From an uncultured Armatimonadia bacterium (GTDB taxonomy: Bacteria > Armatimonadota > Zipacnadia > CAZGSV01), in NCBI GenBank assembly GCA_964528605.1, contig CAZGSV010000004.1, forward strand, positions 64,331 to 80,533: 16,203 bases of DNA, given 5' to 3'. The translations under genes and the position numbers were made by a program. The notes under the pieces were generated by a model. That model did no database searches. It saw only the letters and a list, made by a program, of their open reading frames with translations, and had not been told where the DNA came from. Numbering within the stretch: position 1 is the stretch's first letter; each line of letters begins with the position of its first letter. Below, piece by piece: positions 1,588-7,901 of the stretch.

Positions 1588-2058
1588 ATGAGATTGCGCG
1601 CCAAAGACTGCCGTAGGATCCAAGTGCTTCTCCCCGGGCTGCTCACCGGCGAGGTGTCGGGCGCCGAGGCTGCGGCCTCCCGTGCCCACCTCGAGGAATG
1701 CCCTGCCTGCGCGAGCGATTTCGTGGCGCTGGAGCGGGCCGCCTGCGCCCTGCAGGCCTGGCCCGAGGCTAGAGTGAGCGACCTGGAGTCCCTGCGCCTG
1801 GCCGCGCGCCTGCGGGGCCGCCTGGCCCGTAGACGGCGCCTGGAAATCGGCGACTTCGTCTTTATGGCGGCGTGCGTCGCGTTCGTTTTGCTTGCCGCCT
1901 TGGGGTGGTCAGGTTCGGCGAAGAGCCTGCTGCCGCACCTGGGCAGCGGTTGGCCCTACCTGGTAGCGGTGGGCGCGGCGGTGGCCGGCCCGCTCACTGC
2001 CGCGTTGGCCATGCTGCTCCTCATCCATAACCGTGGTAACGGAGGCGTTCCCCAATGA
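1588..2058 (+). CDS. Putative zinc-finger (zf-HC2) anti-sigma factor with two C-terminal TM helices
   Basis: The N-terminus (CRRIQVLLPGLLTGEVSGAEAAASRAHLEECPACASDFVALE) fits the zf-HC2 anti-sigma pattern C...H-x3-C-x2-C. Two hydrophobic helices follow (FVFMAACVAFVLLAALGW and WPYLVAVGAAVAGPLTAALAMLLLI). The stop overlaps the next start as ATGA at 2055-2058. Start is uncertain: SD AAGGA abuts the ATG at 1588, and the TTG at 1594 is an alternative. Confidence 0.65.
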   Translation: MRLRAKDCRRIQVLLPGLLTGEVSGAEAAASRAHLEECPACASDFVALERAACALQAWPEARVSDLESLRLAARLRGRLARRRRLEIGDFVFMAACVAFVLLAALGWSGSAKSLLPHLGSGWPYLVAVGAAVAGPLTAALAMLLLIHNRGNGGVPQ

Positions 2059-3125
2059 ACCGTGAGAGCCTGCGCCGGCGCAAGCGTGTCGTCGGCTGGC
2101 TGTCGGTCCTTTGCTTCCTCCTCGCGATGGCGTGCGTTCCTGTACTCGCGGGGATAGCCGCCATGGAGGCCGCCTACACCCGACACCGCGCCGTTAGATT
2201 CGCACCGCCTGCGGCGAGAGTCGCGCCTGGAAGGGTTGAGTTCGCCGCCCCTCGCGACCAACTCGCCCGCGAACTGGCCGACCTCTTGAGCACGACCGCA
2301 GCCCCGGCACCCGCGGGCTCCTCTGAAGGCGCGGCCCCGGTCCAGCCGGCGGACCCGCAGAAGATACTGCAAGACTGGGTGCTCGAGCACAAAGACCACG
2401 TGCTCTTTGCTCTGGCGATTGACGGCAAGGGTCGCGCGCTGGCCGCTTTCCCCAACGAACAGATGCTCAAGTCGCTGACTTTCGACATCGCCGGGAACGT
2501 GGACGACGGCTGGGAGCCGGCGATGGACCAGATCGAGGAGGCGGGCTTGCCTCATCCCGAAGGCAACAAAGGCACGGCGGATTACATTGACCCGGCGAGC
2601 AAGAGCATCTGCTACGTGCTGCTGCACACCAAGCCTGCCGCCGCTGTCTCCGTGGAAGCCCCGCTGATAGGCGCCGTGCATTCCTATCTGGGGGGGCCTG
2701 AGTGGGACGGCCGGCGTCTCCTCGGCGTGGGTTGGGAGGGCCTCTATATTGGTCTCGCCTGCACGGGCGGTTTCTTTTGGGTGCTGTGCGTCATCTTCGC
2801 CATATGGTGGGTCGCGCTCGACGCCCGCTATCGGGGAATGCGGCGGGGGTGGCTGCTGGCTTTGTTCTGCTTCCTCACAATGCCGGTGGGGCTGCTGATC
2901 TACCTCATCGTGCGGCCCGATGAGCCGGAGCCTTGCCCCTCCTGCGGCCGCCTTGGACCGGCCGGGTTCAGCGTGTGCCCTTGGTGCGGGGCCCGACTGA
3001 GGGGCGTTTGCCCCAAGTGCAAGGCTGCCGTGGAGAAGGGCTGGCGGCTGTGCCCTTACTGTCAGACGCCGCTGGTTGCGCCAACGGCCCAGGCACCGAG
3101 CCCTAAGGAGCAAGCGGCGGAATGA
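2055..3125 (+). CDS. Membrane protein: N-terminal TM, ~200-aa extracytoplasmic domain of unknown family, PLDc_N-like two-helix module, C-terminal cytoplasmic double zinc ribbon
   Basis: ATG at 2055 is preceded by GGAGGCG 7 nt upstream and overlaps the upstream stop as ATGA. The N-terminus is MNRESLRRRKRV plus TM (WLSVLCFLLAMACVPVLAGIAA), followed by a soluble domain. The motif WWVALDARYRGMRRGWLLALFCFLTMPVGLLIYLIVRP has the PLDc_N-like W..DA..RG..W..G..YL..RP spacing. Four CxxC pairs follow (CPSCG, CPWCG, CPKC, CPYC), forming a double zinc ribbon. The stop overlaps the sigma gene start as ATGA at 3122-3125. Confidence 0.75.
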   Translation: MNRESLRRRKRVVGWLSVLCFLLAMACVPVLAGIAAMEAAYTRHRAVRFAPPAARVAPGRVEFAAPRDQLARELADLLSTTAAPAPAGSSEGAAPVQPADPQKILQDWVLEHKDHVLFALAIDGKGRALAAFPNEQMLKSLTFDIAGNVDDGWEPAMDQIEEAGLPHPEGNKGTADYIDPASKSICYVLLHTKPAAAVSVEAPLIGAVHSYLGGPEWDGRRLLGVGWEGLYIGLACTGGFFWVLCVIFAIWWVALDARYRGMRRGWLLALFCFLTMPVGLLIYLIVRPDEPEPCPSCGRLGPAGFSVCPWCGARLRGVCPKCKAAVEKGWRLCPYCQTPLVAPTAQAPSPKEQAAE

Positions 3126-3745
3126 GTCCCCTGCTAGTGCCTCAGGCGCTGTCCGCGGTCTGGCCGCTCCCGGCGAGAGCCCGGGTCAGTTGGACCGCCG
3201 CGAACTACTGTCTCGACACCGACGAGGACCTGCTGGACCGCTTCCTGCGCGGGGAGCCGGGAGGCCTCGACGCGCTGGTGCAACGCCATCATCAGCCGCT
3301 GCTCAACCTCTGCTGGCGGATGGTGGGCGACCGCGAGGCGGCCGAGGACCTGGTGCAGGAGACCTTCTGGCGCGTGCTCACCAAGGCCGATCGCTTCCGT
3401 AAGCAGGCGAGCGTCCGCACCTGGCTCTACGCCATCGCGATCAATGCTTGCCGCGATCATATCCGCAGCCGGTCGCGGCGCAGGCGCCACGTCGGCGCGC
3501 TGGAGCAGCAGGGCCTCGACGGGGCCAGCGACGAGCACGGGCAATGGGCTGCCGCGCAGACCGCGCGGGTGAGCGCCGCCCTGGCTGGCGTTGATGCGGA
3601 CACGCGCGCGGTGCTGGTGCTCCATTTCTACCGCGGCCTCTCCTATCGCGAGATCGGCCAGGTGATGCGCTGGTCGGCCTCGAGAGTAGCGCAGAGAATC
3701 CGGCGCGGACTCGAACGGCTGCACATGGTGCTTAAGGAGGCGTAG
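3122..3745 (+). CDS. ECF-type RNA polymerase sigma-70 factor
   Basis: Region 2 reads DEDLLDRFLRGEPGGLDALVQRHHQPLLNLCWRMVGDREAAEDLVQETFWRVLTKADRFRKQASVRTWLYAIAINACRDHIRSR. Region 4 reads LVLHFYRGLSYREIGQVMRWSASRVAQRIRRGLERL. The ATG at 3122 forms ATGA with the upstream stop. The ~35-aa N-terminal extension before region 2 means an internal alternative start (for example GTG at 3137) cannot be excluded. Confidence 0.85.
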   Translation: MSPLLVPQALSAVWPLPARARVSWTAANYCLDTDEDLLDRFLRGEPGGLDALVQRHHQPLLNLCWRMVGDREAAEDLVQETFWRVLTKADRFRKQASVRTWLYAIAINACRDHIRSRSRRRRHVGALEQQGLDGASDEHGQWAAAQTARVSAALAGVDADTRAVLVLHFYRGLSYREIGQVMRWSASRVAQRIRRGLERLHMVLKEA

Positions 3746-3750
3746 CGCTG

Positions 3751-4317
3751 GTGAGCGTTGACGATCCCATAGATGCGCTGATAGACCGCACCCGTTCCCG
3801 CAAGGGCATGATCGGTTGGGCGGCTGCCCTGTGCCTGGGCGCGGGGCTGTTGGGCACGGCTTTCCGCGAACTTGCGCCGCTGTTCTTCACCTGCTACTGG
3901 CTGCTGCTGGCTCTGTGGGTCTATCTCGACGCCACGCAGCGCGGCAGCACGAAGGCTTGGGCGTTCGGCATTCTCACGCTGATAGCCAACATATTCGGCC
4001 TGGCCGTGTATCTGGTGGCCAGGCCGGAGGGACCTACCGACTGCCCGTCCTGCGGCGCGCCCATGAAGCCCGAGTACCGTGTGTGCCCCGTATGCGGAGC
4101 GGCCCGGCGACCGCGTTGCCCCAAATGCGGCCAGATGCTCGACGAAGCCTGGTCCTTCTGCCCACATTGCGGCGAACGGCCCGCCAAGGCCGAGCCACAG
4201 CCGACGGCAGCCGCGGCGCCTCCCGTGCCCGCGCAGCCAGCCGAGCCCGTGGCCGCGGCGGAGCAGAGCATACCTGAGGAGTCAGGTGCCGCCGAACAAG
4301 GGCGGCCCGCCGAGTAG
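3751..4317 (+). CDS. PLDc_N-like two-helix membrane module fused to a cytoplasmic double zinc ribbon; paralog of the C-terminus of 2055..3125
   Basis: GTG start at 3751 has a strong SD (TAAGGAGG at 3734-3741, 10-nt spacing). The motif LWVYLDATQRGSTKAWAFGILTLIANIFGLAVYLVARPEGPTDCPSCG...VCPVCG...CPKCG...CPHCG aligns residue-for-residue with IWWVALDARYRGMRRGWLL...GLLIYLIVRPDEPEPCPSCG...VCPWCG...CPKC...CPYC. The tail is Pro/Ala-rich. Confidence 0.75.
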   Translation: MSVDDPIDALIDRTRSRKGMIGWAAALCLGAGLLGTAFRELAPLFFTCYWLLLALWVYLDATQRGSTKAWAFGILTLIANIFGLAVYLVARPEGPTDCPSCGAPMKPEYRVCPVCGAARRPRCPKCGQMLDEAWSFCPHCGERPAKAEPQPTAAAAPPVPAQPAEPVAAAEQSIPEESGAAEQGRPAE

Positions 4318-7537: not shown

Positions 7538-7634
7538 CTACGACCGCGTCAGCGCGGGCGCGCATTCTTGTATCCTTTTGCGGTTCCGCTTCGTCATCAC
7601 TAGCGGCGGGAGCGCAGCCGTGACTCTTCACCCT

Positions 7635-7901
7635 ATGGACCGCGACAAGGAACTACTCGCGCGATTCGCTCGCGGCGAGGACTCGGCCTTTGACGTGCTC
7701 TTCGACCGGCACGCGCGGCGCGTCTTTGACTACCTGACGCGTGTGATGGGTGACGCGGAGGTGGCGGCCGCCGAGCAAGTAGGCATGTGCACCATGGAGC
7801 AGTCGTTGGCTCGCCTGGTCCGCCAGGGCCTGGTGGACGCGGAAGAAGCAAGAAGAGTCGCCCCTGATCCCCCCAAGTTAGAGCGCTACCTCACTCGGTA
7901 G
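7635..7901 (+). pseudogene. 88-codon chimeric ORF: ECF sigma-70 region-2 N-terminus fused in frame to a PilT/PilU-type ATPase C-terminus (gene remnants)
   Basis: MDRDKELLARFARGEDSAFDVLFDRHARRVFDYLTRVMGDAEVA matches the start of ECF sigma region 2 (compare DEDLLDRFLRGE...MVGDREAAEDLVQ in 3122..3745). The rest, GMCTMEQSLARLVRQGLVDAEEARRVAPDPPKLERYLTR, matches the conserved PilT C-terminal tail (GMQT-DQSL..L...G.I..EEA.R.A.DP..L.R). No SD precedes it. It forms the last 88 codons of overlapping track ORF 6723..7901, which is in a different frame from the C45 gene. Confidence 0.45.

Follow-up and report, generated by a model that had tools for sequence, protein, structure and literature searches.

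The window analysed here, a stretch of 16,203 nucleotides (nt) of contig CAZGSV010000004.1 from an uncultured Armatimonadia bacterium, contains a four-gene operon in which the gene for an extracytoplasmic function (ECF) sigma factor is flanked by two genes (2055..3125 and 3751..4317) whose products share a module, a two-helix membrane hairpin followed by a double zinc ribbon. To judge by their sequences, these two products are old paralogs of a widespread family. Other members of the family lie directly downstream of ECF sigma genes at all nine loci sampled from diverse relatives, and in two proteins the module is fused to an anti-sigma-like N-terminus. The interpretation that is somewhat favoured is that the module proteins are accessory subunits of a membrane-bound sigma/anti-sigma switch, with the ribbon and the loop of the hairpin in the cytoplasm and the larger paralog as a possible input.

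Duplication of the module

The original prediction, made from the letters of the window alone, held that a module of this kind was duplicated in the two genes, and proposed that their alignment be set against shuffled controls. The duplication was borne out. Residues 198–336 of the large protein align with residues 1–140 of the small protein with 52 identities in 143 positions (36%; BLASTP, E = 2e-22), and the Smith-Waterman score of the two products, 223, is well above chance, since 1000 full shuffles gave 34 ± 6.5 (z = 29). When the cysteines were kept fixed and the membrane and ribbon parts were shuffled separately, the control score was 53 ± 12 (z = 14); taken by itself, the membrane part stood at z = 11 over shuffles, and the ribbon part, with its cysteines fixed, at z = 7. 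The similarity therefore exceeds what hydrophobic composition and CxxC knuckles would provide. The motifs that had been listed (WV-x-LDA-x2-RG, GL-x2-YL-x2-RP, CPSCG, VCP-x-CGA, CPKC and W-x2-CP-x-C) were all found. The paired arrangement is also not confined to the window, as a metagenomic contig (L001) carries a large protein, a sigma factor and a small protein in the same order, both flanking proteins bear the module, and the proteins are 41–65% identical to their counterparts in the window, the pair itself being seen at 55–65% identity. The duplication thus predates the divergence of these two sequences.

That the likeness of the two genes is a by-product of generic hydrophobic helices and common CxxC knuckles, with no specific meaning, has a negligible chance of being correct: zinc ribbons and membrane helices are indeed common and low in information, and many Pfam zinc-ribbon models match the same stretch, but such an origin is ruled out by the shuffle controls (those with fixed cysteines and per-segment composition included, as well as those for the membrane part), and it sits poorly with the recurrence of the pair in L001 and with the non-cysteine positions D, A, R, G, Y, L and R, which are invariant or near-invariant across the family.

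Some particulars of the earlier description needed amendment. The two-helix hairpin is present in both proteins, but each has an additional hydrophobic helix nearer the N-terminus (residues 12–36 and 20–38, respectively). The module was said to take up almost all of the small protein, which is not the case, as its final 48 amino acids (aa) form an unmatched tail rich in Pro, Ala and Glu. The span given for the module, 2763–4190, begins inside helix 1 of the first copy, crosses the whole sigma gene and ends just past the second ribbon at 4170. The tail (window 4171–4314, + strand) is acidic and differs in length between orthologs, and the large paralog has nothing of the kind.

Gene organization of the operon

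The operon occupies 1588–4317 of the + strand and consists of tightly packed genes for an anti-sigma factor, the large module protein, the ECF sigma factor and the small module protein. Both junctions among the first three genes are 4-nt overlaps, and the small module gene begins 5 nt past the sigma stop codon, so the four genes can be read as one translationally coupled operon. The features are as follows.

1588..2058, + strand: anti-sigma factor, 156 aa (Pfam zf-HC2, 30.9 bits against a cut-off of 22.2; hydropathy)
2055..3125, + strand: large module protein, 356 aa (open reading frame (ORF) and translation; same layout as the ortholog in L001)
2088..2162, + strand: helix 0 of the large protein, residues 12–36 (hydropathy; preceded by MNRESLRRRKR, with six K/R)
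2742..2912, + strand: PLDc_N-like hairpin of the large protein (aligns with the small protein; family profile matched to ClsA by hhalign)
2934..3062, + strand: double zinc ribbon of the large protein, residues 294–336, four CxxC pairs (Pfam DZR)
3122..3745, + strand: ECF-type sigma factor, 207 aa (Pfam Sigma70_r2, 74.2 bits, and Sigma70_r4, 44.3 bits)
3751..4317, + strand: small module protein, 188 aa, GTG start (ORF; AlphaFold2 model with a mean predicted local distance difference test score (pLDDT) of 84)
3871..4020, + strand: PLDc_N-like hairpin of the small protein (hhalign to ClsA; weak Pfam PLDc_N match)
4042..4170, + strand: double zinc ribbon of the small protein, residues 98–140, four CxxC pairs (Pfam DZR)

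The sigma factor also scores 106 bits on the NCBIfam sigma70-ECF model. The anti-sigma factor opens with a zinc-binding anti-sigma domain (H-x3-C-x2-C at residue 34), has membrane helices at residues 87–105 and 128–146 by hydropathy, and ends in a short C-terminal tail; it lacks a sensor domain of its own. In the large module protein, a basic N-tail is followed by helix 0, a poorly conserved region of about 190 aa that would lie outside the cytoplasm, the membrane hairpin (helix 1, 230–255; basic loop DARYRGMRRG, 256–265; helix 2, 266–286, with the breaker M-P-V-G) and the double zinc ribbon. The small protein, which was also called independently (as P0001), has helix 0 (20–38), the hairpin (helix 1, 41–59; loop DATQRGSTKA, 60–69; helix 2, 70–90, with the breaker A-N-I-F-G), the double zinc ribbon and the Pro/Ala/Glu-rich tail (141–188).

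The module family

The double zinc ribbon of the original prediction is supported, as both proteins exceed the gathering cut-off of the Pfam DZR model (PF12773; 27.3 bits), the large protein with 41.2 bits (residues 294–336) and the small protein with 43.2 bits (residues 98–141). An NCBIfam scan assigned neither of them to a family. Similarity searches with single proteins recovered only four relatives besides the query itself, and the family became visible when a module profile was searched against 1.84 billion cluster representatives (50% clustering). This gave 15,296 matches at E ≤ 1e-3, part of the weaker ones covering the ribbon only, and 2,035 at E ≤ 1e-10. In an alignment of 98 relatives, all 98 match the DZR model, the eight ribbon cysteines are invariant, and V57, D60, A61, R64, G83, Y87, L88 and R91 (numbering of the small protein) are each kept in at least 90% of sequences. 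The CxxC spacing of +0, +14, +25 and +39 recurs in the top 150 representatives, following two hydrophobic helices. In the two window proteins about 7 residues lie between hairpin and ribbon.

These 150 representatives show several kinds of architecture. The module stands alone in 16; in 56 it is N-terminal and is followed by one further membrane helix and a domain of 150–300 aa; in 49 a single helix precedes it, with 0–200 aa between, the class to which both window proteins belong; and the remainder are mostly tandem modules. A catalytic domain is lacking across the family. Database names go no further than 'zinc ribbon domain-containing protein' or similar, and the named hosts include Acidobacteria, Limnocylindrales (Chloroflexota), Verrucomicrobiae, Bacteroidales and gut anaerobes. 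Three of the profile matches, P0011 (1317 aa), P0048 (1297 aa) and P0066 (349 aa), are made up of little else than zinc ribbons in tandem, the CxxC pairs numbering as many as 38, and two of the three have no membrane helix.

In the AlphaFold2 model of the large protein, pLDDT is below 50 over most of residues 53–223 and continuously low at 144–223. P0021, a relative of the large architecture class, has a weak dCache_1 match at residues 36–104 (E = 2e-4, below cut-off) and a weak Sigma_reg_N match at residues 1–46 (E = 0.047), which hints at a Cache-like external sensor in the stretch that separates helix 0 from the hairpin.

Linkage to ECF sigma and anti-sigma factors

Loci were sampled from different architecture classes (L001, L004, L006–L009 and L026–L028), and in all nine an ECF sigma gene lies directly upstream of the module gene on the same strand. 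At the loci with available sequence, the two usually have between them the gene for a protein of 93–168 aa with two membrane helices, with overlapping stop and start codons. In these intervening proteins a short cytoplasmic N-terminus precedes the two membrane helices and the C-tail is basic, which is the design of the anti-sigma factor in the window, and three of them match zf-HC2 weakly or better. Besides L001, the gene orders are as follows.

L004: sigma, zf-HC2-like protein, module
L006: sigma gene with an in-frame stop, then module
L007, L008 and L009: sigma, small protein, module
L026: sigma upstream; module at the N-terminus of its protein
L027: sigma upstream; large class resembling the 356-aa protein of the window
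L028: sigma upstream; module gene apparently split from its C-terminal domain

Pairwise identity of the sigma factors is 24–42% across these loci, except for the window and L001 (60%) and L008 and L009 (67%), so the association of module and sigma does not reflect one recent clade. In a metagenome scan made with a single clade from gut or fermenter sources, 44 distinct modules were recovered, 28 of them with at least 1.1 kb of upstream sequence, and in 27 of these 28 an ECF sigma gene ends about 250 nt upstream. Two of the sampled loci seem to contain broken genes: in L006 (3488–4000) the sigma gene is interrupted by the in-frame stop (DS*ILSW), and in L028 (4001–4898) the module gene appears cut off from its usual C-terminal domain, which is found in the following ORF. 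Either case may reflect a sequencing error or a cassette in decay.

A further tie to anti-sigma factors is seen at two loci (L109 and L110) where the sigma gene is directly followed by a gene for a single protein of 396–409 aa (P0017 and P0032) and there is no separate anti-sigma gene. Both proteins have an N-terminus of about 115 aa with the H-x3-C-x2-C motif, then helix 0, a module, a second such helix (helix 0') and a second module. The zf-HC2 match of the fused N-terminus is weak (E = 0.02 for P0017, no match for P0032), and the two proteins are regarded as a Rosetta-stone link that joins anti-sigma function and module. The conserved operons and these fusions back the functional tie between module and anti-sigma factor that was originally suggested.

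Two observations made beside these may be recorded. On the opposite strand of both loci, adjoining the fusion cassette, are genes for a NikR regulator and for a nickel/cobalt uptake system of the CbiMNQO type (L109, 4062–7021; L110, 3163–5502); a connection with metals is possible, and is based on two genomes that may themselves be related. The 256-aa protein P0018 begins with Sigma70_r2 (residues 43–103, 65.7 bits) and continues with the hairpin and double zinc ribbon, lacking region 4 and an anti-sigma part; it is either a real fusion of a sigma fragment to the module or an artefact of assembly or frameshift.

Relationship of the hairpin to PLDc_N

The hairpin had been called PLDc_N-like, a description that stands at the level of profile similarity but not of Pfam membership. 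On the Pfam PLDc_N model (PF13396; gathering cut-off 23.3 bits) the small protein scores 13.0 bits (E = 0.1), a scan of the large protein gave no match, relatives scanned individually score 12–20 bits, and 36 of the 98 relatives match at E ≤ 0.01, all below threshold, the best with E = 9.6e-6. Of the two Pfam domains that had been proposed for a check of the module, DZR is therefore found above its cut-off in both window proteins whereas PLDc_N is below it in both. When a profile built from 30 module sequences was aligned by hhalign to residues 1–75 of Escherichia coli ClsA, the two matched with 90.3% probability (E = 1.4e-6) over 51 columns that include both helices. The ClsA fragment itself reaches 33.4 bits on PLDc_N, and the numbering of its P48 and G51 is that of the literature (PMC11698083).

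The alignment extends to the putative breaker within helix 2, as N80 of the small protein is paired with ClsA P48 and G83 with ClsA G51. ClsA has PxxG at this position, where the large protein has M-P-V-G and the small one A-N-I-F-G. In the consensus of the family, P or N precedes the conserved helix 2 glycine by two to four residues, the proline itself not being invariant. AlphaFold2 interrupts helix 2 at N80 in the small protein and at residues 276–277 in the large protein. The hairpin is accordingly best described, at the level of sequence profiles, as a divergent relative of PLDc_N and not as a member by the curated test of Pfam.

Topology of the module

It was originally predicted that the ribbons face the cytoplasm. 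A naive count of helices says the opposite, but evidence from across the family favours a helix 2 that does not span the membrane, and on this evidence the ribbon is probably cytoplasmic. The number of lysines plus arginines (K+R) in the N-tail averages 0.59, 3.06 and 0.67 in proteins with zero, one and two helices ahead of helix 1, a pattern indicating that helix 1 always runs from outside to inside and that the loop after it, with about 3 K+R per 12 residues, is cytoplasmic. In the anti-sigma fusions the orientation of helix 1 is fixed independently, and in the same direction. In the 56 proteins with a further helix after the ribbon, there are 3.70 K+R before that helix and 0.77 after it, with linkers rich in Ser, Thr and Gly, of a kind common in external segments, coming next, and this bias places the ribbon side in the cytoplasm. 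Tandem proteins retain basic loops in both units (e.g., DSTSRK and DSRRRS in P0017), which implies an even number of crossings per unit, and among 251 relatives 72% have a net basic ribbon and 8% a net acidic one. If loop and ribbon are both cytoplasmic, helix 2 cannot span the membrane, and the break that AlphaFold2 introduces into it sits where the family aligns with ClsA P48.

The same reasoning has been published for ClsA, where the loop and the spacer after the second helix are both basic and where it was proposed that PxxG may 'melt' this helix into a membrane-dipping re-entrant loop (PMC11698083). AlphaFold draws it U-shaped, and the catalytic domain that follows is cytoplasmic in normal cells; the hairpin is required for the flip of that domain to the periplasm upon depletion of phosphatidylethanolamine or osmotic down-shock (PMC11698083).

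Beta-sandwich domains occur beside the ribbon in several relatives. P0006–P0010, P0012, P0016 and P0019 have a CarboxypepD_reg-like beta-sandwich directly after the ribbon, without an intervening helix. Under the topology favoured here, CarboxypepD_reg-like domains in this position would face the cytoplasm, an uncommon location for them.

Proposed role and alternatives

An anti-sigma factor without an external domain leaves input or stability to be supplied by another component, and the module proteins are embedded in the membrane, translated together with the anti-sigma factor and, in some lineages, joined to it in one chain. In the proposed arrangement, helix 0 and helix 1 would be membrane-spanning, whereas helix 2 would dip into the membrane and return, so that the ribbon as well as the basic D-A-x-x-R-G loop would lie at the cytoplasmic face. 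The hairpin would pack against the two membrane helices of the anti-sigma factor, and the ribbon, held at the inner face, would touch the cytoplasmic anti-sigma domain or the sigma factor itself. The external region of about 190 aa in the large paralog could act as an input domain. The homology of the modules, the assignment of the ribbon to its family, the conservation of the operon and the occurrence of fusions are matters of observation, while we infer the topology, the physical contact with the anti-sigma factor and the part of regulator, as opposed to regulated target.

Several observations weigh against a cytoplasmic accessory subunit. Neither window protein reaches the Pfam cut-off for PLDc_N. 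The simplest topology, three spanning helices with the N-terminus inside, places the ribbon outside, and the break modelled by AlphaFold2 in helix 2 is only one or two residues long. Domains of the CarboxypepD_reg family are usually extracellular, and P0135, P0137, P0130 and P0079 carry one directly after the ribbon, with no helix between, although the tandem forms would put this domain inside under either model of topology. The gene order in the window (anti-sigma, module, sigma, module) departs from the usual order of sigma, anti-sigma and module. No module was found at 16 loci reached through distant relatives of the window sigma factor (≤36% identity), from which it follows that the link runs from module to ECF sigma and not from every ECF sigma to a module. 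Lastly, linkage in an operon is equally expected for an effector under the control of the sigma factor.

The strongest competitor takes the plain topology at face value: the ribbon would be outside, and its eight cysteines would serve as a periplasmic or extracellular sensor of metal or of thiol-disulfide redox state, signalling to the anti-sigma factor via the membrane helices. Each window protein does have three hydrophobic segments of about 19 residues and a basic N-tail (RRRKR in the large protein, RTRSRK in the small), helix 2 at 21 residues is long enough to span the membrane, the four relatives with CarboxypepD_reg immediately after the ribbon would be accommodated, and the anti-sigma factor itself has no external sensor domain. 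Such an arrangement is nevertheless unlikely. It runs counter to the charge bias around the post-ribbon helix in 56 relatives and to the basic character of most ribbons; the second unit of a tandem protein would have to invert, exposing its RRR loop outside; and eight-cysteine zinc knuckles are typical of reducing compartments. In normal cells, moreover, the domain that follows the homologous hairpin in ClsA is kept on the cytoplasmic side (PMC11698083).

It is also conceivable, though distinctly improbable, that the module proteins are not regulators at all but members of the sigma regulon, for example membrane-protective or lipid-handling proteins that are co-transcribed since ECF operons auto-induce. 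A place in the operon, taken alone, would suit a regulator and a target alike, an enzyme of lipid synthesis has an anchor to which the hairpin is related, and the small paralog has no obvious input domain. A mere target would not be expected to be fused to an anti-sigma-like N-terminus in the place of a separate anti-sigma gene, as in P0017 and P0032, or to keep its place right after the anti-sigma gene, with overlapping stop and start codons, across phyla and across sigma factors only 24–42% identical; and the family is without a catalytic domain.

By analogy with the flip of ClsA, the hairpin might itself be a topological switch that responds to lipids or to tension, a proposal that must be considered a long shot. 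Perturbation of the bilayer would move the basic ribbon across the membrane, or shift helix 2 between a dipping and a spanning state, and either change would break or make the contact with the anti-sigma factor. If this were true, a widespread ECF cassette would be a direct sensor of the state of the membrane, and the conflicting topological signals of the family would mark a truly metastable segment.

Surroundings of the operon

The neighbouring genes (a metallophosphoesterase, a beta-propeller fragment, a DegT aminotransferase, an AAT-family protein, an alpha-galactosidase, a peroxiredoxin and an SPFH protein) offer no clue to the function of the operon. A sigma-70-type promoter was not found upstream of it, and the terminator-like matches fall within genes. 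The ORF listed upstream on the opposite strand (622–1569, - strand) opens at a TTG codon 18 nt from the anti-sigma start, and a start at MSQMRSG (about 1455), ahead of a signal-peptide-like stretch, seems more likely; this would leave a divergent intergenic region of about 130 nt for the operon promoter. Further downstream, a frame at 7566–7898 (+ strand) includes ELLARFARGEDSAFDVLFDRHARRVFDYLTRVMGD, which resembles the beginning of ECF sigma region 2 and is followed by unrelated sequence. No Pfam match at 1e-4 was found for this frame, and it may be a gene remnant.

Significance

Few bacterial signalling systems are as abundant as ECF sigma factors, most groups of which have no known input. 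The window pair is an ordinary member of a large, uncharacterised family, and it is the family that matters: the loci sampled tie a family of some 2,000 representatives to ECF sigma/anti-sigma pairs whose two-helix anti-sigma factor lacks a sensor domain, making the module a concrete candidate for the missing input or for a co-inhibitor. Its anchor is related to the one hairpin that has been shown experimentally to change topology with lipid composition, which provides a testable route to understanding how a cell monitors its own membrane. In the searchable literature no description of the link between this family and ECF sigma factors was found, and supplementary tables of ECF classifications may list it. 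Anti-sigma complexes of several components are already known, to which the module cassette would add a variant.

Comparison with known systems

YxlE, from the SigY operon of B. subtilis, is presumably a PLDc_N protein. The SigY system itself is a precedent in regulatory design, as its ECF sigma factor is co-transcribed with an anti-sigma factor and further small membrane proteins, and regulation needs both YxlC and YxlD (PMC7826278); it shows that additional membrane proteins can take part in an ECF switch. It differs in that no zinc ribbon has been described there. Membership of the window sigma factor in the SigY group (ECF31) was considered and rejected (90.6 bits on the NCBIfam SigY model, against a cut-off of 194), as was SigY orthology of the sigma factors at related loci (84–119 bits).

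The zinc-binding anti-sigma factors of Class I (zf-HC2; RsrA, ChrR and RslA type) are represented in the operon by its first gene, and an N-terminus of this type is joined to the module in the two fusion proteins. The ribbon of the module is nevertheless of another kind, a C4-C4 double ribbon and not the helical H-x3-C-x2-C domain. It shares with the DZR domain four CxxC pairs at the spacing of the model; DZR, however, is a generic domain of many contexts, whereas here it is tethered about 7 residues from a membrane helix as a conserved unit.

For the hairpin, the PLDc_N domain of ClsA is a close comparison. Both have two hydrophobic helices with a short basic loop between them, a putative breaker in helix 2 followed by a conserved glycine and x3-Y-L, basic residues flanking helix 2 on both sides, with the topological paradox that this creates, and a break in helix 2 in AlphaFold models (for ClsA, PMC11698083). 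The module differs from ClsA in lacking the phospholipase D (PLD) catalytic domain and having a double zinc ribbon of 43 residues in its place, in the D-A-x-x-R-G loop motif, which is specific to the module family, and, in both window proteins, in the extra helix ahead of the hairpin.

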